Shown here: positions 4,455 to 63,411 of the stretch, piece by piece | How positions within the stretch are numbered: the stretch's first letter is position 1 | Layout: the number at the start of each line of letters is the position of its first letter | DNA from: a virus | Taxonomy: Duplodnaviria > Heunggongvirae > Uroviricota > Caudoviricetes | DNA length: 64,000 nucleotides | Direction: 5' to 3' (one strand) | Virus record (IMG/VR): IMGVR_UViG_3300033143_002040 | Span: 35,712-99,711 of that record | Translations under genes and position numbers: made by a program | The notes under the pieces: model-generated | Database searches by the model: none | What the model was told of the DNA's origin: nothing | The model's input: only the letters and a program-made list of their open reading frames with translations

Positions 4455-4696
4455 TGAATTCTATAGACTTTTGTTATTGGCTACAGGGCCATTTTGAAAT
4501 TAGTGAAACAACTGAATTGAATGAAAAGCAAGTTGAAATTATCAAGAATCATTTAAACCTTGTGTTCAAGCATGAGATTGATGGCATCTATGAAAAGGAT
4601 GAATTACAAAAGATACATGACGGCGGCACGGGTGGGCCAGGCGAGTTTACCCCGACGGTGCACACTTCACCAAACGATATAAAAATAAGATGCTAA
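4454..4696 (+). CDS. hypothetical protein (80 aa)
   Basis: ATGA-coupled to upstream ORF. Confidence 0.45.
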   Translation: MNSIDFCYWLQGHFEISETTELNEKQVEIIKNHLNLVFKHEIDGIYEKDELQKIHDGGTGGPGEFTPTVHTSPNDIKIRC

Positions 4697-4697
4697 T

Positions 4698-6227
4698 ATG
4701 AGAGATTTAACAGTAGGTAAAAAAGACTATGCATTATTCTTGCCAGCGATAAGTGGCTTCTACACAGAAGTACTTGGTCGCTGTAGGAATTTTCCAGATT
4801 ACCTGCCGCCTGATAGGACACCTAAGGGTTTTGAAAATGGTATGGAAGGTCTTGATTTCTTCAACGAGGATAAGGGATATTTCTATTACGATGTGGGTTT
4901 GTATTCAGCAGGACACGCATACTTAGACGAAGAACGTACTAATAAATTTGAGTGGATGATTCAAGAGCGCGATAAGAAAAAGACTACGCTCTTGGGTGAT
5001 TCAGGCGGGTATCAAATCGGCAAAGGTGTTATTAAATTTGATTGGGAACACTTCTATGAAAAGAAAGGTGATCCAGGTTACATCGGCAAAGCAGATAAAA
5101 TGCGAGCAGATATTCTTCATTGGCTTGAATACACGGCTGATTGGTCACTAACACTTGACGTACCTACATGGGCGTACATGGAAGAAACAGCAAGAGAACG
5201 CACAGGGTTGCGCACATTCCAAGAATGCTTAGATGCAACATTATTTAATCTCGATTATTTTGTTGAGCATAGAGAAAACAAAACAAAGTTCCTCAACGTA
5301 CTTCAAGGTACAACGTGGGATGATGCAAACACTTGGTACGACGCCGTAAAGGACTATCCGTTCGAAGGTTGGGCAATGGGCGGCAATAATATGCGCGACA
5401 TAGAAATCGCCCTTCGGCGTCTTATTATTATGCGGGACGAAGGGTACTTAGAAGGTAAAGATTGGATTCACTTCTTAGGAACTTCTAAACTTGAGTGGGC
5501 AGTAATGCTAACTGGTGTACAACGTGAATTGCGTAAGCACGTAAATCCGAATGTAACAGTCAGTTATGATGCAGCAAGTCCATTCATCGCAGCAGCAAAC
5601 GGCCGCATGTATACATATAATTCTTTGTTATGCGACAAACTTAGCTATGTGATGGATAGGGGATTTGACGGTAGACAATTAGCTCATAGTGATATTCCGT
5701 TTCCGTTTGAAAGTGAAATCGGACGGCGGTTAACAGTCGGTGATGTTTGTCACTACGGTAAAGGTGATCTTAACAAGCTTGGCAAGGTCACTAACTCAGC
5801 TTGGGATTCGTTTACTTATACAATTCTAGGAGCGCACAATTGCTACGCGCACATACGCGCAGTACAACGCATCAATCACCTTAGTGACTTAGAGAGTATG
5901 CGATTCGATCCAGATTGGAGAACATGGACAAAGACAAAGCGCAAATCTAAAGCAGCAGAAATGTCTTTTTGGGTTCCGCGAAATTTGTTGTACTTCAATA
6001 ATTTTATCAAAGAACTATTTGTATCGGACAATCCTATGCAGATGCTAGATGATGCTTCACCATTACTTCAAGAAATGACTAATCAGAAATATATCGACGG
6101 CAACACAGCATTATTTCAAGATTTGTTCGGAGATGAGAATGATAATGAAGTTATAACTGGCGAAGATTATGGACGCGAAGATGATGTACTTGATGCACTA
6201 GAAAGAAAACTGAGGAATGAAAACTAA
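4698..6227 (+). CDS. tRNA-guanine-transglycosylase-superfamily protein, DpdA-like putative DNA 7-deazaguanine transglycosylase
   Basis: LLGDSGGYQIGKG matches the TGT catalytic LTDSGGYQ motif; C-terminal Cys/His cluster (CHYGKG...AHNCYAH) in the position of the TGT Zn site; QueD/QueE homologs nearby. Confidence 0.6.
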   Translation: MRDLTVGKKDYALFLPAISGFYTEVLGRCRNFPDYLPPDRTPKGFENGMEGLDFFNEDKGYFYYDVGLYSAGHAYLDEERTNKFEWMIQERDKKKTTLLGDSGGYQIGKGVIKFDWEHFYEKKGDPGYIGKADKMRADILHWLEYTADWSLTLDVPTWAYMEETARERTGLRTFQECLDATLFNLDYFVEHRENKTKFLNVLQGTTWDDANTWYDAVKDYPFEGWAMGGNNMRDIEIALRRLIIMRDEGYLEGKDWIHFLGTSKLEWAVMLTGVQRELRKHVNPNVTVSYDAASPFIAAANGRMYTYNSLLCDKLSYVMDRGFDGRQLAHSDIPFPFESEIGRRLTVGDVCHYGKGDLNKLGKVTNSAWDSFTYTILGAHNCYAHIRAVQRINHLSDLESMRFDPDWRTWTKTKRKSKAAEMSFWVPRNLLYFNNFIKELFVSDNPMQMLDDASPLLQEMTNQKYIDGNTALFQDLFGDENDNEVITGEDYGREDDVLDALERKLRNEN

Positions 6228-6564
6228 TAATTCAAAAATACTTATTCCTATTGTTAGGAAACTCTATCCAAACATGATAGCTGATATGATTACGAAAGTT
6301 CAGCCGATGCAAGGCAAAACGGGTTCAATCTTTAGCCTGAATATAGAAGATTCTATAATTAATCCTTGGTCAGAATGGCGTAGAACAACAAGTTTATGGC
6401 CGCGTGAATCAATTACAGGAAAATGGATTGTTGGCCGCATCAACAAACGTGGACGGAATGTTTGGGGTGGCGGTGGTATGCAAGGTAAGGCTACTCGCAA
6501 ACGACAATTCGCAACAAACAAAGAATTATTTGCATTAAAATTAAAAGGTAATAGCGATGAGTGA
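6217..6564 (+). CDS. small protein, KEYFKKKLxG-family (subfamily with PR(K/E)SITGK box)
   Basis: WPRESITGKWIVGRINKRG ... NKELFALKLKGNSDE. Confidence 0.55.
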   Translation: MKTNNSKILIPIVRKLYPNMIADMITKVQPMQGKTGSIFSLNIEDSIINPWSEWRRTTSLWPRESITGKWIVGRINKRGRNVWGGGGMQGKATRKRQFATNKELFALKLKGNSDE

Positions 6565-6955
6565 TTTATATATTGTTGATTCTGGAACTGTTACTACTGG
6601 TAACGTATTAACATATACCACCACTAATACGGGTTCTATATGGGTCGCGCATGAACCATTAGCTCCGCCACCGCGGGTAAGCCCAATTCCGCCGCCCGTG
6701 CTTGATCCGTTTATCAAGAGGGAGTTTTGGGATGATGTAGAATGGAAAGAATATACTTCTTACATGCCGCGGAAATCAATTACAGGTAAGATTATTATAG
6801 GAAAAATGCATAAGCGTAGTAAAAAAGATATTATAAAAGGTGGAACTTATCATACATCAAATGTTACAAATACAATACTTGATAGAGCAATTCCTCATAC
6901 ACAATATGCTAAAACAAAAGAATTGTTTGAAGAAAAACTAAGAGGCAAAGCATGA
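6557..6955 (+). CDS. small protein, KEYFKKKLxG-family (PRKSITGK box)
   Basis: MPRKSITGKIIIGKMHKRS ... TKELFEEKLRGKA; paralog of 6217..6564. Confidence 0.55.
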   Translation: MSDLYIVDSGTVTTGNVLTYTTTNTGSIWVAHEPLAPPPRVSPIPPPVLDPFIKREFWDDVEWKEYTSYMPRKSITGKIIIGKMHKRSKKDIIKGGTYHTSNVTNTILDRAIPHTQYAKTKELFEEKLRGKA

Positions 6956-7257
6956 AACTCGGAGAATACAGAGTTGTGTATGGTGCATATTATAACTATC
7001 GTGCTGTACATGATACATCACATTGCGCAGACATTTGGACTGTAGAGGAACGCTGTCAAGTAACATTATTCGGATTATGTAAGCTGTGGGATTATTGGAG
7101 TGAGCATACAGAACCTAACTATGATGCTCAATACACTATACAATTTAAGAGTCCAGAGCAAGCATTTGAATATGTAGAACGATTATTAAACGGCAATCCT
7201 CGAAATACAACAATAAAGACAGTAGTAACAGAAATAAACCATGAACGAATCAATTAA
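6952..7257 (+). CDS. hypothetical protein (101 aa)
   Basis: tiled ORF, ATGA overlap with upstream. Confidence 0.45.
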   Translation: MKLGEYRVVYGAYYNYRAVHDTSHCADIWTVEERCQVTLFGLCKLWDYWSEHTEPNYDAQYTIQFKSPEQAFEYVERLLNGNPRNTTIKTVVTEINHERIN

Positions 7258-8330: not shown

Positions 8331-8502
8331 TTGTACATCATGCGGAAGTGAAATTCCAGACGATCAAGGTAACTCTTGTTCAATGTGTTACGGCGACCCC
8401 GATCATGGTCACGATGGTTACTATCAAGCAATGCTAGATCAGCAATACGAAGAAGAAATGGCAAAGCAGTATCGTGAAGAATATAGAGAACGAGAAGAAT
8501 AA
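8317..8502 (+). CDS. hypothetical Zn-ribbon mini-protein
   Basis: CTSCGS...CSMCYGD. Confidence 0.4.
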   Translation: MTMANCTSCGSEIPDDQGNSCSMCYGDPDHGHDGYYQAMLDQQYEEEMAKQYREEYREREE

Positions 8503-8780
8503 TGGTAATAGAGATTGACGGCATTATCCATAACGGCAACCTTAAAACTGAATGGACTAAGTGGAGGGAAACATTTTGTTTCTTGCCACATAAAGACATT
8601 ACAGGAATATTTATCATGGGACTTATATGGTGTCGTGTGCAGGAATCTCGTATATATAAATATGAAAATGACATAGGTTATTACATATCGTCTAATTTAG
8701 GATATGTAGAGTACGCTAGAACGAAGAAAGATATTTTCTTACGTAGTCTCGCAGGAAAAGAATATAGGATAAAAATATGA
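8502..8780 (+). CDS. small protein, KEYFKKKLxG-family variant (HKDITG box)
   Basis: WTKWRETFCFLPHKDITGIFIMG ... TKKDIFLRSLAGKE. Confidence 0.5.
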   Translation: MVIEIDGIIHNGNLKTEWTKWRETFCFLPHKDITGIFIMGLIWCRVQESRIYKYENDIGYYISSNLGYVEYARTKKDIFLRSLAGKEYRIKI

Positions 8781-9310
8781 TTTATGAAGTTAAATATTGG
8801 CCTAACCCTTGTTTGAAGGAGGCCGCAAAAGATGTTACTGATTTGAGTCTTGAGGTATGCAATGACATAATTGCTAATTTATTTGAGACTATGTATACAG
8901 GACACGGCATGGGTCTTGCAGCAACACAATGTAACATACCGCTGTGTATTATGGTAATAGACACAACACAAATAGGCGGAAAGCTTAAGCAAGCATTTAT
9001 AAATCCTGTTATCAAAGAACTAACAGAAAAGAAAATCATTTCAGAAGAAGGCTGCTTAAGCTTTCCTGGAATTTTTGTGAAGATAGAACGCTGTGACGGC
9101 GTAGTAGTGGAACACACGACCTTGACAGGAGAGACAGAACAAGCTATACTAAATGGTGTAGATGCTATTTGCTTTCAGCATGAATACGACCACTTAAATG
9201 GTATTGTATTTTACGATCATTTGAAAGCAGCAAAGAGACAAATGATGGAAACGAAAGTACGTAAGAATGTGAAAAAGATAATAAGACTGGAAAACAAACA
9301 TGCGCATTAA
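8777..9310 (+). CDS. def: peptide deformylase
   Basis: GxGxAAxQ (GMGLAATQ), EGCLSFPG, HEYDHLNG motifs. Confidence 0.9.
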   Translation: MIYEVKYWPNPCLKEAAKDVTDLSLEVCNDIIANLFETMYTGHGMGLAATQCNIPLCIMVIDTTQIGGKLKQAFINPVIKELTEKKIISEEGCLSFPGIFVKIERCDGVVVEHTTLTGETEQAILNGVDAICFQHEYDHLNGIVFYDHLKAAKRQMMETKVRKNVKKIIRLENKHAH

Positions 9311-11208: not shown

Positions 11209-11463
11209 ATGGCATTCGAAAATATAAAACAACAGAAAGTTTGGTGTATTCATTTTTGGGGCATGACACTAGAGGAAGGCCTGTTAATGGGCAAAGAAGG
11301 TGATGGATTTTATGTGCGTTTAGATGGTGCTGCAATAAATGACATCGAAATAATTAATGCTGATAATGTATTCTTTGAGAAAGAGGCAGGAGAAAGAGCA
11401 TTATTTAAAGCTAACTTAGCTGGTGATAAAAGGCCAGCAAATAAAGATATTAGAGACTTATAA
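11209..11463 (+). CDS. hypothetical protein (84 aa)
   Basis: tiled ORF. Confidence 0.4.
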   Translation: MAFENIKQQKVWCIHFWGMTLEEGLLMGKEGDGFYVRLDGAAINDIEIINADNVFFEKEAGERALFKANLAGDKRPANKDIRDL

Positions 11464-15823: not shown

Positions 15824-16150
15824 TTGGTTCGCGTTATTAATGGAACAACAAGAACAGAAAGAAGGAACGCCTCGCTGGTGGAAGTATGCGCGTATGGTTC
15901 GAAAAATAGAGGACGCATTAGGGGCAACAAAGCGGCCATTGTTAAAGGTAGTAAAGACAAAATGAATGACGATGATTGGGAAAATAAAACTATCCTTCAT
16001 GGCGGCGGTGAGTGGCTTAAAGAGAAAGATGGCCTGTACACTAAGTATATGAATATTCATTACAAGGATGGCAGAGTAGATAGACACATAATGGAGTCTG
16101 GAGTAACAGAAAAAGAATACTTCAAGAAAAAATTAGATGGATCCGACTGA
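15824..16150 (+). CDS. KEYFKKKLxG-family protein
   Basis: ...GVTEKEYFKKKLDGSD; true start may be a downstream Met. Confidence 0.5.
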   Translation: MVRVINGTTRTERRNASLVEVCAYGSKNRGRIRGNKAAIVKGSKDKMNDDDWENKTILHGGGEWLKEKDGLYTKYMNIHYKDGRVDRHIMESGVTEKEYFKKKLDGSD

Positions 16151-16349
16151 ACGTTGGCTGAAACGTAGATGCAGGGCAGATGAAAAACTTGTTTGTTGGG
16201 CAACGTTGCGTATAATAACTCGAGGTGAAACATATTACGAGTATCAGATGAACGGAACGAAGATGAATAATATCATCATAAATGAAAAAGAATATTTTAA
16301 GCAAGCCCTATTAGGGTTTAAGGGATTTAAATTTTATGACAAAAATTAA
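16137..16349 (+). CDS. KEYFKKKLxG-family protein
   Basis: ...INEKEYFKQALLGFKG. Confidence 0.45.
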   Translation: MDPTERWLKRRCRADEKLVCWATLRIITRGETYYEYQMNGTKMNNIIINEKEYFKQALLGFKGFKFYDKN

Positions 16350-16926
16350 AAGAATTTTACCTTTCGGTTGGTTTCCAGGACACTGGGGTCTAACAGGAAA
16401 AGTACGTGAAAGAGCAGAAGCAGAATACACACTCATTGGCGAAAGTCTCGACAAGAAAAATATCGAGATTAATCTTGGTGATCGAACTGATGAGGAAGTT
16501 GCAGTAGCATTACTTGAACACGAAGTAAAATACGGTAGGCTAACTCAGAAAGAACTTGACAAGCAAAGTGCAACTATTAAAAATGAACCTTGGGTGGATG
16601 TTAAGAATCTAGAAACAGATCCTGATAATCCTCGCTATGGCGGCGTTGAACTTGACTGGAATCAAGCATTCATTGACCACTTAGAGAAACATGGCTACGG
16701 TCCAAATCCAGATGATGAAGACACAGTTAATGATTGGTTCAACGATCTATGCAGAAACATTGCGTTAGATGCATATGATGGTGTTGGGGACTTTCAGGAA
16801 CGAGTAGAGGATACTTCTCAGGTAGCTCGTCGTACAAACATACACGAAGACGCCATTCCTATAAATATTGCTCCGCCGATTGATGGTGCAGAAAGTATAG
16901 AAGATATTGCAGACGATGATCTATAA
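16336..16926 (+). CDS. hypothetical acidic protein (196 aa)
   Basis: tiled ORF. Confidence 0.5.
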   Translation: MTKIKRILPFGWFPGHWGLTGKVRERAEAEYTLIGESLDKKNIEINLGDRTDEEVAVALLEHEVKYGRLTQKELDKQSATIKNEPWVDVKNLETDPDNPRYGGVELDWNQAFIDHLEKHGYGPNPDDEDTVNDWFNDLCRNIALDAYDGVGDFQERVEDTSQVARRTNIHEDAIPINIAPPIDGAESIEDIADDDL

Positions 16927-21610: not shown

Positions 21611-21639
21611 TTGACATAAGTGCTTGATTCCTGTAATAT
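21611..21639 (+). promoter_or_regulatory. sigma70-consensus promoter TTGACA-17-TAATAT
   Basis: TTGACA 21611-21616, TAATAT 21634-21639; flanked by AAGTGCTTGA repeats. Confidence 0.6.
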
Positions 21640-22056: not shown

Positions 22057-22152
22057 TACCTGTAAGGAATTCAATGACTTAATACGTGTACGTAACTATC
22101 TGTTTTTAAAGAGTTTCCACTTAAGTGCTTGATGTTAAACAGGTTATAGTTG

Positions 22153-23565: not shown

Positions 23566-23594
23566 ATGTATATAAATTGATAGGAACTAATCAA

Positions 23595-25088
23595 ATGTCA
23601 CAGAAGTTTTCCCCAGAAGATAAATTAGTCAAAGCACGTATTGATTTTATTTACAACGATTGCGTGTTTCTCGGCAACTTAGCACTTCGACTTGAATTGG
23701 TCGATGCTACCGCATGGTGTCCTACTGCGGCAACTGACTTCAAGCATTTGTACTACAATCGAGATTTTATTGATCGTTGTTCACTTGAAGAAACCAAATT
23801 TGTGATTGCACACGAGGTTATGCATTGTGTGTACGATCACTTTTCTCGTCGTGAGGAACGTGATCCGCGTCTGTACAATTGTGCTGGCGACTACGTAATT
23901 AACTTGGAACTGAAGGATCTTGGAATCGGTTCTTTTCCTTCCAGTAATACCATGATGGATCCGAAGTACGAAGAATTCATCAAAGAGAATTTCCCTGAGC
24001 GTTACCGAAAGTATAAGAAAGAATTTGCTGGTGGTGAGCCAGGTGTGCTTTGCGAAGAAAAGTATCGCGATATGTCTTCTGAGGAAGTCTACAACATCCT
24101 AAAGAAAGAACAGGATGAGCGGGACAAGCAGAATGGTAAAGGCGAGAGCGACGGCCAGTGTGGCGAATGTGGCGGTACTGGACAGGCCCCAGGCGATCAA
24201 GGTGAAGGCGATCAAGATGGTGAAGGCGAAGGTGGCAGCGGCCAATGTGGCGGAAGCACCCCAGGTGATTGCCCGTCTTGTGGTGGTTCTGGCAAGAGTA
24301 AAGGCGGCCAGAACGGACCAATTTCACACGATATGCATATGGATCCTGAGGCTGGTGATGCTGATGGTGACGAAAATGATGGCTCGCAAGGTCCGATCAA
24401 GATTGACCAAGAAGAAATTGATCGGATGGACAGCGATATGCGTAAAGCGATCATGGACGCAGCAGCAGTTGCATCCGAAGCACGTGGTGGCGCAGGTAAC
24501 ATCCCAGGTGGTGTTAAGCGTCTGATTGATGATTGGACAGATTCTACAGTTGACTGGCGCGAGTATTTGAATAACAGCATTCAGTCAACTTTGAAGTCAG
24601 ATTACACATGGCAGCGTCAGAGCAGGAAGTCTCGCTCTACGAATTACTACTTGCCTGCAATGGACAACGATATGATGGTTAGTGTCGATCTTGCGATTGA
24701 TACGTCAGGTTCAATGTCTGATGAAATGTTGAGAGACATTCTTGCAGAGGTTAAAGGTATCATGGAGCAGTTCGCAGACTTCAAGCTTCGTGTATGGTGC
24801 TTCGATACTGAAACGTATGAAGTTCACACGTACACACCTGACACGGTTGATGAGATTTATGACTTCGAGTTAGAAGGTGGCGGTGGTACGATGTTTGAGT
24901 GCAATTGGGAAATGATGCGTCAGGAAGAAATTGTTCCAGATCAGTTCATTCTCTGCACAGACGGTTACCCCTGCGGAACTTGGGGCGAAGAGGATTACTG
25001 CGATACAGTATTCTTGGTGCACGGTCGTAAGAGCATTGTTGCTCCCTTCGGTGTTACGGTACATCACGAAAACGCTACTGACGATTAA
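23595..25088 (+). CDS. VWA-domain protein with N-terminal HExxH zincin-like motif and Gly/Cys-rich acidic linker (CobT/MoxR-partner-like)
   Basis: IAHEVMHCVYDH; MIDAS DTSGSMSDEM; linker GECGGTGQAPGDQGEGDQDGEGEGGSGQCGGSTPGDCPSCGGSGKS. Confidence 0.7.
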   Translation: MSQKFSPEDKLVKARIDFIYNDCVFLGNLALRLELVDATAWCPTAATDFKHLYYNRDFIDRCSLEETKFVIAHEVMHCVYDHFSRREERDPRLYNCAGDYVINLELKDLGIGSFPSSNTMMDPKYEEFIKENFPERYRKYKKEFAGGEPGVLCEEKYRDMSSEEVYNILKKEQDERDKQNGKGESDGQCGECGGTGQAPGDQGEGDQDGEGEGGSGQCGGSTPGDCPSCGGSGKSKGGQNGPISHDMHMDPEAGDADGDENDGSQGPIKIDQEEIDRMDSDMRKAIMDAAAVASEARGGAGNIPGGVKRLIDDWTDSTVDWREYLNNSIQSTLKSDYTWQRQSRKSRSTNYYLPAMDNDMMVSVDLAIDTSGSMSDEMLRDILAEVKGIMEQFADFKLRVWCFDTETYEVHTYTPDTVDEIYDFELEGGGGTMFECNWEMMRQEEIVPDQFILCTDGYPCGTWGEEDYCDTVFLVHGRKSIVAPFGVTVHHENATDD

Positions 25089-25089
25089 A

Positions 25090-25476
25090 ATGTATCAGAT
25101 GGTCAATCATAACGGCAACAAGGCTTACGAAGTCGATAATAAGCTTTATCAGACTCAAATGGAAGCTAAAGTTGATATTCAAGTGCAAAGGGCGAAGATT
25201 GATATAGAAATATTGCGTCTTGAGCAACAGCGAATAGCAGACTTTAGAAAAAAAGTTGGCCTTACTTTGCTAGAGAATGATGCAAGTGTCATGTTCACAA
25301 AGACAAGACAAGCAGTAATCGAATTGGCATTTGCTCACGAAATGGGAAAGACTCAGTACGTGATAGACCAAGCAGCATTAGCAGTTGCAAATACTCGCAC
25401 AATGTACGACTCAGTTTGCAGAAAGATTTTTAAGATTTGTTTGAAGCATGGACTCAAGAGTGAGCATTTAAAATGA
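25090..25476 (+). CDS. hypothetical protein (128 aa; start MYQMVNH)
   Basis: internal start right after upstream stop. Confidence 0.45.
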   Translation: MYQMVNHNGNKAYEVDNKLYQTQMEAKVDIQVQRAKIDIEILRLEQQRIADFRKKVGLTLLENDASVMFTKTRQAVIELAFAHEMGKTQYVIDQAALAVANTRTMYDSVCRKIFKICLKHGLKSEHLK

Positions 25477-25727
25477 CTTTAGGTGAAATAGTAAATAAGC
25501 GTCAACTTGACCTTAGACTTGAAAAGGCAGAAGCAGAATTGCAGTCTGCCTTAAGAGTGCTTGACTACTTGCTAAAAGAATCGGCCGCGACATTGTTTGG
25601 ATATGAGCGTAAGCCGAATCATAAAGAACGTTGTTATGCTAACGCCAAGTCACTTGACGTAGCACACGAAAAAATTGAGAAGTGTAAGAAAGAATTGTTT
25701 CAATTCAAATTGAAACACGGTGAATGA
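25473..25727 (+). CDS. small protein with KEYFKKKLxG-like C-terminus
   Basis: ...CKKELFQFKLKHGE. Confidence 0.4.
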   Translation: MTLGEIVNKRQLDLRLEKAEAELQSALRVLDYLLKESAATLFGYERKPNHKERCYANAKSLDVAHEKIEKCKKELFQFKLKHGE

Positions 25728-34946: not shown

Positions 34947-35045
34947 TAGAACTAGCCATCTCTGCGCGGTCACAGCGCAACGAGTCACAACACCAACAAA
35001 GTAGAACACGTAGCAGGTCGCTACGGAAAATACCTAAGGATTTCA

Positions 35046-35100
35046 ATAGGTTACGTATTTTAGAAACTTCAATGAAATCAATAGGTTACGTATTCTTGTA
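35046..35100 (+). repeat. two copies of a 16-bp direct repeat TCAATAGGTTACGTAT upstream of promoter
   Basis: copies at ~35046 and ~35084. Confidence 0.6.
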
Positions 35101-45413: not shown

Positions 45414-46106
45414 TTAACTCCTAGTCTTCTCATTTATTTTCTGTGATGTCCAACCCTTAAATCCTTTGTGGACTGATTGGAAGGGTAAATTATTGTCTCT
45501 ACAATATTTACGTAAATTTTTAATCTGTGCTGTCTTGCCTTGTGGATCTGTGACGAGCCAATTACATGCTAATTTTTCTGCTTGTTTTTGTCGGGCTATT
45601 TTATTTTGTGACAGCAACCTAGCATTCTCACCAAATATTTTTCTCGCGTTGTCTGTAATAACACGCGATTTCCACGCTTCTTTTAATGCTTCTCTATGTG
45701 CTTCACTTTTTGGCTTGCCTTTTAAGGATGCAGAACGTTTAGCCTTTATAGCATCCGCATATTCTTTTCCATATCGTTCTTCGTATGTTTTTCCTTTGTA
45801 CAATACAGACATATTTTTTGCATGTTTTTCTCTCAACCATGCATAAAGTATATTACCTGTGCGTTCTTTCTGTTTCCCAGATGTCATCCTGTGTGCTGCA
45901 AATATAAGTTTTCTATTGTGAGGATATATCTTTACAAGCAGTAAGTGAGCTACATAATGTTCCCTTGCAGTCAATATTGAAATATTGCTAGGATCATCGC
46001 CACCGCCCATACACTTCGGAACGATATGATGTCTCTCAGTATATCCATCAAGCACACGATCTTGCGTTCTCTCATTCAGCCTGTTATAGTGTTCTATATA
46101 ATTCAT
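45414..46106 (-). CDS. HNH homing endonuclease (free-standing, copy 2) inserted in the tail-fibre operon
   Basis: HHIVPKCMGGGDDPSNISILTAREHYVAH; ~60% identical to the 20254 copy over the first 75 aa. Confidence 0.8.
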   Translation of the reverse strand: MNYIEHYNRLNERTQDRVLDGYTERHHIVPKCMGGGDDPSNISILTAREHYVAHLLLVKIYPHNRKLIFAAHRMTSGKQKERTGNILYAWLREKHAKNMSVLYKGKTYEERYGKEYADAIKAKRSASLKGKPKSEAHREALKEAWKSRVITDNARKIFGENARLLSQNKIARQKQAEKLACNWLVTDPQGKTAQIKNLRKYCRDNNLPFQSVHKGFKGWTSQKINEKTRS

Positions 46107-62807: not shown

Positions 62808-63033
62808 TCCCTTTTTATTCCTTTTTTATTCTCGTCTCCACCGTCCCTAAAGTTATGGAAACAGCGTAATAGTAGCTATTAATAACTAAAACCCATCACT
62901 AGTTGCACTAGTGATATAAAGCCTTCATTTGTAGCATAATTATCATTCTTAAACCCTTGTATAGCTTCATTCTTCTCTACTATTCTTTTATACTGCTTAA
63001 CTGTTCATTATATAAGACACTAGTGATTCTTAT

Positions 63034-63162
63034 ATCGTAATAGTGGTAAAAAATCACTCTCGATACTTCTCTCTTGTAAAACCCACTGAACGGTCATCAT
63101 TTAGTGTTGTTAGTGTATTATTAAATCGTAATACTGGTAAAAATCACTCTCGATACTTCTCT
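63034..63162. repeat. two ~39-bp direct repeats (ATCGTAATAsTGGTAAAAATCACTCTCGATACTTCTCT) upstream of the giant gene
   Basis: copy 1 63034-63072, copy 2 63125-63162; 1 mismatch + 1 indel. Confidence 0.8.
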
Positions 63163-63411
63163 GTATGTGTACATTTTACCATTCTAAATCCTCTGTATCG
63201 AAAAAACGTCCTACCACTCTCTACGTCAACTATAGCTTCATTGTTACTTTTTCTGCGTGTTTAAAAACATTCTTATATCGTATTCGGGACTATTTTTGCC
63301 TCCCTATTATCTCACTCACTTACACTCAAATACATCATACAATTTAGTACTGTTGTGAATAGTTACTACAGTCAAGCCTACAAGTAGAGTTGCATGAGTG
63401 AATATAGTATC

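Follow-up and report, generated by a model that had tools for sequence, protein, structure and literature searches.

The conspicuous AT-rich, repeat-bearing gap ahead of the 16-kb virion gene of an uncultured jumbo phage is probably (we put the probability at roughly 60%) the relic of two small membrane-protein genes, in which the repeats represent the duplicated tail of one of these genes and short conserved cores have been kept for signals of the giant gene. The two genes are designated here as orfS and orfU. Along the gene strand, the gap would thus consist of an orfS pseudogene, a degenerate array of orfS tails, a lineage-specific hairpin and the stump of orfU. According to this reconstruction, orfS lost its reading frame and would survive as a 5′ fragment, and its last ~50 nt (the K-F/Y-x-x-I-x-I codons and the stop codon) would have been multiplied together with ~40 nt of 3′ flanking DNA to about five units, most likely by slipped or unequal recombination between copies. 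The two repeats noticed at the outset would be the heads of the two best-preserved neighbouring units, and orfU would have shrunk to a 59-nt block right before the start codon of the giant gene. The bulk of the gap is presumably functionless and drifting; the cores may persist as gene-boundary or cis-regulatory signals (promoter or leader) of the giant gene, and the hairpin may act as a terminator parting transcripts of the upstream small ORFs from the giant gene's own transcript.

In our reading, the region is an ordinary product of hyperplastic-region turnover, and what looks like an elaborate control region before a 16-kb phage gene would be a gene graveyard. It calls for caution and provides a small evolutionary case of such turnover in a jumbo phage, where slippage duplicates the ends of genes, their bodies decay and nothing but boundary signals is retained. 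If the cores are regulatory, they offer a first handle on the expression of the giant virion protein in this uncultured clade and an example of coding sequence recycled as a control element.

Genomic setting of the gap

The window, i.e. the whole stretch of 64,000 nucleotides analysed, originates from an uncultured jumbo myovirus whose plus strand encodes a T4-type DNA polymerase, RtcB and a QueE-like protein, the structural genes being on the minus strand. Identical sequence, bar the few differences given below, is carried by two near-identical JGI metagenome contigs, L001 and L002. The gap (62808-63411) comprises 604 bp on the minus strand and is bordered by a membrane-protein ORF of 39 aa and by the giant gene. 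The original prediction had described it as an unusually long, AT-rich noncoding stretch of about 600 bp ahead of the giant gene, and this description was confirmed: it is the longest ORF-free stretch in the ~74 kb made up of the window and a 9.8-kb extension, and its GC content of 33.3%, compared to 40.8% for the window, falls within the lowest 0.7% of 604-bp windows. The coordinates of all features are compiled in Table 1.

The giant protein matches the virion structural protein family phrog_10938 and is ~40% identical to gp355 of phage PA5oct, a virion protein confirmed by mass spectrometry, the gene of which lies directly after the baseplate wedge genes. A homologue of the baseplate wedge gene (1128 aa, phrog_10646) is located on L001 ~4 kb upstream of the giant gene, and between them lie the 604-bp gap and ~10 small ORFs. 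The wedge gene directly adjoins the giant gene in PA5oct as well as in two distant relatives, L003 and L004. Because these two large genes abut there, the small ORFs and the gap appear to form a hyperplastic segment, prone to insertions, within a conserved structural module.

Database comparisons did not assign the gap to any known element. A DNA similarity search against 50,697 phage records gave no match for it, Pfam gave none for the small ORFs inside it, and the Rfam covariance models found nothing in it, their single match lying outside the gap at chance level (E=1.9). ARAGORN detected no tRNA in the window, and no mobile-element signature was found at the gap. When IMG/VR was scanned for exact patterns of the repeat and of the block preceding the giant gene, the outcome was either nothing or four chance matches in unrelated contexts.

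The short ORFs in the gap were rejected as genes. Two plus-strand ORFs (73 and 60 aa) crossing the repeats have neither a family match nor a ribosome-binding site, and a 1-nt indel between near-identical contigs, at 63139, falls within the 73-aa ORF. The longest minus-strand ORF has 26 aa, and minus-strand ORFs of 17-26 aa vary in length and frame among relatives; likewise, a micro-ORF beginning MKLYKG.. ranges from 9 to 20 aa across relatives and is missing from L016.

Table 1. Coordinates of the features discussed (window positions; basis of each assignment in the last column)
Feature	Position	Strand	Basis or remark
Giant virion structural gene, 5308 aa	46881..62807	-	ORF list
E block: putative remnant of orfU C-terminal motif (HNFxxGGDExKK)	62808..62866	-	tblastn and alignment
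Perfect 9-10 bp hairpin with 3-nt loop (hairpin 62894-62916), followed by GGGTTTT(T)	62886..62916	-	terminator scan
Head of unit u0 with proximal X core (AGAGAAGAATGAAGCTATACAAGGGTTTAAGAATGA)	62938..62982	-	aligns to nt 212-275 of L016 orfS, z=4.9
Imperfect palindrome TATAAGA-AT-CACTAGTG-TCTTATA, overlapping the end of R1	63011..63034	.	read from sequence
R1: downstream repeat, head of unit u1 (62983-63072)	63026..63072	-	repeat and orfS alignment
R2: upstream repeat, head of unit u2 (63073-63162)	63117..63162	-	repeat and orfS alignment
Degenerate unit with distal X core (AATGAAGCTATAGTTGACG, 63224-63246)	63163..63267	-	remainder of unit assigned by eye
R3: putative first copy of orfS 3′ end (..GGAGGCAAAAATAGTCCCGAATACGATATAAGAAT), with third 14-mer	63268..63303	-	alignment
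Block A: putative orfS 5′ (transmembrane) remnant	63309..63401	-	DNA alignment and translated match
ORFs with shared C-terminus	~6217-7257, 8502-9310, 11209-11463, 16137-16926, 25473-25727; in the extension, 72926-73225	+	

Probable remnants of two small genes

The gap was compared with the corresponding loci of 17 metagenomic relatives; 15 of them, at 55-91% identity, came from a metagenome scan with the N-terminus of the giant protein, and L024 and L025 were added by protein search. Upstream of the giant gene, these relatives carry two families of small genes. OrfS (71-92 aa), intact in L016, L005, L015 and L012, codes for a protein with an N-terminal hydrophobic stretch (an apparent transmembrane segment), the motif ..ALYxYP.. 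and a C-terminal K-F/Y-x-x-I-x-I. The second family, orfU (87-139 aa), is intact in L007, L010, L011, L013, L014, L018 and L019 and its product combines a hydrophobic start with the motif ..G(H/R)NFxRxP(H/D)VEKK... Neither family has a match in PHROG.

Segments of the window were locally aligned to the intact orfS and orfU genes and scored against shuffled controls. Block A, at the upstream end of the gap, aligned to the orfS genes of L012 (nt 7-91, z=13) and L016 (nt 27-113, z=10.5). Translated, it reads TVLNCMMYLSVSE*D against TILNGMMYVRLSESD, and it carries a net +7-nt indel, which shifts the frame, and a TCA>TGA stop; an internal deletion adds to the lesions of orfS. R3, R2, R1 and the region 63002-62942 each aligned to the orfS 3′ end, stop codon included, with z=3.4-16. 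This portion of the gap thus combines the defining marks of a pseudogene, namely homology to genes that are intact in relatives, disabling lesions and lack of an intact ORF. Among the relatives orfS is found intact, deleted or degraded; because L024 has independently lost most of it, as judged by eye from the upstream sequences of L024 and L005, the gene appears to be expendable and to have been lost repeatedly.

The 59-nt E block abuts the ATG of the giant gene. Its translation, FHNFRDGGDENKKGIKRE, aligns with the conserved motif of orfU, as expected for a stump of this gene.

The two families have a tail in common in one relative. In L018 (3440-3487), orfU ends with ..SNITI and a stop codon, encoded by ATAACGATTTAA, which is the same tail as in orfS and in the repeats of the window; this suggests a past exchange between the orfS and orfU families at the sequence described below as the Y core.

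A degenerate array of probable gene tails

The two direct repeats were found exactly at the positions originally proposed (63034-63072 and 63125-63162). They are real, but the length of ~39 bp given for them was an underestimate, as they extend over 47 nt (R1) and 46 nt (R2). R1 and R2 differ by 3 mismatches and one 1-nt indel located in a homopolymer. Their 24-nt core AAAAATCACTCTCGATACTTCTCT occurs in 2 copies in 64 kb, compared to 0 expected from 100 shuffles, and the 14-mer ATTCTTATATCGTA is found once more, unchanged, at 63269-63282, which makes three copies.

All three copies resemble the end of orfS. R3 aligned to the final 35 nt of orfS in L012 and to the end of the gene in L016, and R1 likewise aligned to the 3′ terminus of orfS in L016 (24/25) and in L012. 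The right half of R2 (TTTACCAGTATTACGATTTAATAATACACTA) is identical at 30/31 positions to the 3′ end of the intact L012 gene, comprising the KFTSISI codons and the stop codon.

The similarity continues beyond the repeats themselves. Homology between units u1 and u2 spans all of their 90 nt, with 44/47 identical positions in the heads and 27/43 in the tails (p=0.008 for the tails); the two units are arranged head to tail and resemble each other over the whole unit, as members of a tandem array do. The outer units are detectable through their cores only: the X core, AATGAAGCTATA, is a diverged form of the head sequence AGAGAAGTATCGAGAGTGA. Its distal copy is identical at the matching position in L005 and L024, and its proximal copy is near-identical in L012, L005 and L024. 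Taken together, these alignments point to an array of about five degenerate units of ~90 nt. Tandem Repeats Finder (TRF) reported no ~90-nt array in the gap, the units being too diverged.

The internal pattern of the array bears on its history. The left half of R1 and R2 (AGAGAAGTATCGAGAGTGA) is the same within the window and unconserved in L012, which fits gene conversion or a recent (re-)duplication rather than function. In L012 itself, the first copy is an apparent recombinant of the left part of R3 with the right part of R2, and the intervening 152 nt are absent. Where R1 ends, an imperfect palindrome was noted; its sequence CACTAGTGAT is found only there and in the hairpin, and its RNA fold was not significant (z=-1.1).

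Conserved cores against neutral drift

As a neutral yardstick, the window and its relatives were compared at the four-fold degenerate sites in the giant gene. The identity there amounts to 0.67 for L012, 0.62 for L016, 0.52 for L005, 0.44 for L015, 0.43 for L024 and ~0.33 for distant relatives. The alignable part of the gap (423 nt, with 60 nt from the start of the giant gene included) is ~65% identical to L012, which is roughly neutral.

Three short cores depart from this background. The Y core, TTTACCAGTATTACGAT[AT]TAAGAA, is best conserved in its 3′ part CGAT[AT]TAAGAA; a fuller form reads CGAT[AT]TAAGAA[TC] with TTTACC upstream, and 30/31 positions are identical to L012. Approximately 22-26 nt of the X core are identical in L012, L005 and L024. 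The E core consists of CATAACTTT..CGGTGGAGACGAG..AAAAAGG; the E block is identical to L005 at 43/46 positions and recognisable, as CATAACTTT..CGGTGGAGACGAG..AAAAAAGG, in the DNA of 16/16 loci, translated or not, and it is unique within the window. The order X..Y..X..E is kept in five lineages. The original prediction had proposed that the repeat be compared with relatives and searched for elsewhere in the genome, and both comparisons were informative: at least five relatives carry core parts of it ahead of the giant gene, so that it is not absent from relatives, and within 74 kb it is confined to one locus. The same applies to the three cores, which were found at this locus only, in 74 kb of the phage and at the other loci, apart from one weak Y-like case at 4675.

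Conservation of the three cores far above the neutral rate, as read from five to six close relatives that are kin by descent, suggests that they retain some cis-regulatory function for the giant gene, most plausibly in signals for its transcription or translation. Phage mosaicism, i.e. recent exchange, could mimic such local conservation.

Several observations concern the E block in particular. In distant relatives it lies inside the orfU frame, with AAC as an Asn codon in 16/16 loci; in the clade of the window orfU is gone and the block is kept beside the start of the giant gene. This suggests a role at the DNA or RNA level. The block need not abut the start codon, because L016, the closest relative (91% identical), carries a 61-nt insertion between the E block and the giant ATG (1140-1203).

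The Y core coincides with the ends of three different ORFs, L012 orfS, L016 orfS and L018 orfU, which terminate inside it in different frames and with different stops. Because of this, the Y core would be a boundary signal in its own right. For the same reason, descent may have run from gene tail to repeat or the other way; in the latter case the repeats would not be gene pieces but an original boundary element into which ORFs happened to extend. A Y-core-like motif, AACGATATAAAAAT, was also seen at 4673-4686, 23 nt upstream of a 509-aa ORF starting at 4698.

The cores may also be read more ambitiously. For the giant virion gene in this clade of uncultured phages, they may form a dedicated cis-regulatory module, i.e. 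a tandem promoter or operator array plus leader, which was exapted from the coding sequence of two small genes and outlived them; this proposal is tentative and we consider it possible rather than probable. The E block would be the clearest case of exaptation if such a module is real.

Promoter-like signals

A related explanation holds that each unit is a phage-specific middle or late promoter or activator site, multiplied in order to drive or time the 16-kb gene. In its favour, the Y and X cores exceed the neutral rate of conservation and follow one order in five lineages, and their placement in some relatives would suit a promoter: the L018 Y core lies 27 nt before the ATG of the giant gene, and ATATAAGA-like motifs lie directly upstream of it in L013 and L025. 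The arrangement TTTACC - 12 nt - TAAGAAT also speaks for this explanation, as we take it to resemble the box-plus-minus-10 layout of T4 middle promoters. However, neither the sigma-70 nor the T4 late consensus (TATAAATA) is matched in the units, the motif is missing at other gene starts in 74 kb save for the weak case at 4675, a terminator-like hairpin stands between the units and the gene, and the same gene is expressed in relatives that have no array. We therefore regard multiplied promoters as a rather unlikely explanation, and decay of small genes as the better one.

The searches for known promoter types were consistent with this assessment. No sigma-70-like site was found inside R1, and the gap with its surroundings, here and in relatives, contains no more such sites than shuffled sequences. 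The sole promoter-like site touching R2 (63201-63173) shows 9/12 matches and has only its -35 part near R2. An alternative sigma-70 reading, TTTACC-N18-TACACT, was discarded, as it fits only R2 and L012 and fails in R1. The gap lacks the T4 late consensus, six copies of which occur in 74 kb, none of them placed at late gene starts. The duplicated promoter or enhancer suggested in the original prediction is thus partly upheld: a promoter or regulatory role of the conserved cores is possible and is the functional reading that we prefer, but no consensus promoter is present.

Hairpin, RNA folding and variation between contigs

The only strong structure in the gap is a hairpin on the gene strand downstream of the array, with a fold of -13.2 kcal/mol (z=-3.4). 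Its stem has only 3 G-C pairs, the T-run that follows comprises 4 nt (5 in L002), and the structure is unconserved in relatives. R1 and R2 fold no better than shuffled sequences on either strand (z -0.2 to -1.65), and the fold of the whole gap gave z=-2.3 and -1.5. A conserved RNA structure was sought in the E block and none was found, the cores being linear motifs without covariation.

These results bear on the idea that the gap contains one or more ncRNA genes, in which an RNA of ~100-130 nt would start in the array and end at the hairpin, similar to the ncRNAs of PA5oct. The strong gene-strand hairpin with its T-run, a perfect TATAAT ~100 nt upstream of this hairpin (63002-63007, minus-strand reading) and the precedent of four ncRNAs in ORF-free regions of PA5oct (PMC7318152) are in line with this idea. 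Rfam gave no match, on the other hand, the units and the whole region have fold z-scores between -0.2 and -2.3, the hairpin is not conserved and tolerates loop inversion and indels, and the cores lack covariation. An ncRNA gene is quite improbable on this evidence, and the regulatory RNA considered at the outset was not borne out, as the repeat units fold no better than shuffles and belong to no known RNA family. The ORF-free transcribed regions ncRNA001-004 of PA5oct were defined by RNA-seq and are 236-619 bp long (PMC7318152); they illustrate that gaps of this kind may be transcribed. They have in common with the gap that they are long ORF-free stretches without a database homologue in a related jumbo lineage; they differ in that they show no sequence similarity to the gap and are sited elsewhere in the genome, and in that the gap is known from sequence alone.

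Comparison of the window with L001 and L002 over 10.5 kb revealed 4 differences, namely one SNP in the giant gene and 3 changes inside the gap, for 2 of which a homopolymer assembly error is possible. The homopolymer in R2 (A on the plus strand) has six bases in L001 and L002 and five in the window; because of this additional base, R1 and R2 are of equal length in these two contigs. In L002 the T-run after the hairpin is 1 nt longer, and at 62903-62907 the 3-nt loop of the hairpin is inverted relative to the window and L001 (GCA versus TGC on the gene strand), in contigs that are otherwise ~99.95% identical. This inversion is apparently a flip-flop of the kind made by recombination within a cruciform. 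As a whole, the variants in the gap are of the kind seen in DNA under weak constraint whose sequence is prone to slippage and to cruciform formation.

Search for origin, packaging and insertion signals

The original prediction had also considered a packaging or origin-like element and the remnant of a mobile-element target duplication. An AT-rich region with direct repeats would suit a replication origin, a packaging signal or a target-site duplication, and a homing-endonuclease gene is indeed present at the other end of the giant gene. However, the cumulative GC skew turns at ~40 kb, together with the strand switch, and not at the gap, and the spacings of the repeats (152, 91 and ~87 bp) show no helical phasing, which leaves an origin or packaging element without its expected features. 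Against a target-site duplication, R2 and R1 are separated by only 52 nt, in which neither an ORF nor terminal inverted repeats are present, and relatives have orthologous repeats that do not flank an insertion. Explanations of this group are scarcely credible. The proposed remnant nevertheless proved partly apt: the repeats do appear to be a remnant, of the 3′ end of a small gene and not of a mobile insertion.

Two homing/HNH endonuclease genes are located in the window at 45414-46106 and 23577-25088 (phrog_655, phrog_1314). One of them lies less than 1 kb past the 3′ end of the giant gene, with two small ORFs intervening.

Relation to known phage systems

The turnover of ORFans in T4-like and jumbo myoviruses shares the main traits of the gap and its surroundings: a cluster of small, poorly conserved ORFs lies between conserved structural genes, gene content varies among close relatives, and frameshifted or stopped fragments are left behind. 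It differs in that here the 3′ end of a gene was multiplied to an array of about five units and short cores remained constant across lineages.

A more specific precedent is given by the PeSL/PmSL elements of T4-type phages, short repeated intergenic promoter-stem-loop motifs at plastic gene boundaries (PMC2839356, PMC4122927). PeSL copies recombine and thereby delete or duplicate intervening DNA, and some copies are degraded and mis-spaced (PMC4122927). The gap could accordingly be a mobile cassette of this type, in which a unit of promoter and stem-loop shuffles ORFs in hyperplastic regions. It does share with PeSLs the boundary repeats in a plastic region and the association of copies with indels and exchanges between related genomes, as illustrated by the first copy in L012, which resembles an R3/R2 recombinant; degraded, mis-spaced copies ascribed to recombinational slippage would likewise fit (PMC4122927). 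In contrast to PeSLs, the units described here have no recognisable sigma-70-like promoter or stem-loop, they carry the coding sequence of a C-terminus, and in 74 kb and at the locus of every relative they are confined to the locus of one late structural gene. Because two defining features, a promoter with stem-loop in the unit and, within this scope, dispersed copies, are missing, a cassette of this type is very improbable. PeSLs are the closest described analogue in behaviour, and the region is not to be filed among them; a gene relic with duplicated tails describes it better.

Further observations on the locus and the genome

At 2325-9044 of L024, an 80%-identical relative, gene calling splits the giant gene into three ORFs (239, 82 and 4693 aa), so that near its 5′ end the gene may be either interrupted or mis-assembled. 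The first of these calls starts at a TTG within the E block, in frame with the giant ORF, and the same frame is found in L005. Programmed -1 frameshifting at the A AAA AAG run in orfU/E was considered and rejected, as the -1 frame stops within 3 codons; in the clade of the window the run is, as judged by eye, also out of that register.

A de novo search upstream of all genes yielded AAAGAAT and ATAAAGA as top k-mers, which resemble the Y core. They were rejected as a promoter motif, as they largely correspond to the C-termini (KELF..KL.G) of paralogous small genes and were not significant after correction for multiple tests. The small plus-strand ORFs concerned share the C-terminal peptide ..K(K)ELF..KL.G, which takes the DNA form AAAGAAT(T)nTTT ~20-40 nt before the next start codon. 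From their sequences, these ORFs seem to be paralogues that make up a family of small genes of the early or middle class.

Finally, direct repeats were also observed in the early region just upstream of near-consensus sigma-70 promoters, at 21614-21628 and 22119-22133 (A[CT][AT]TAAGTGCTTGAT) and at 35036-35059 and 35071-35094 (a 24-nt repeat with CAATAGGTTACGTATT). These early-region repeats are possibly operators or UP-like elements.
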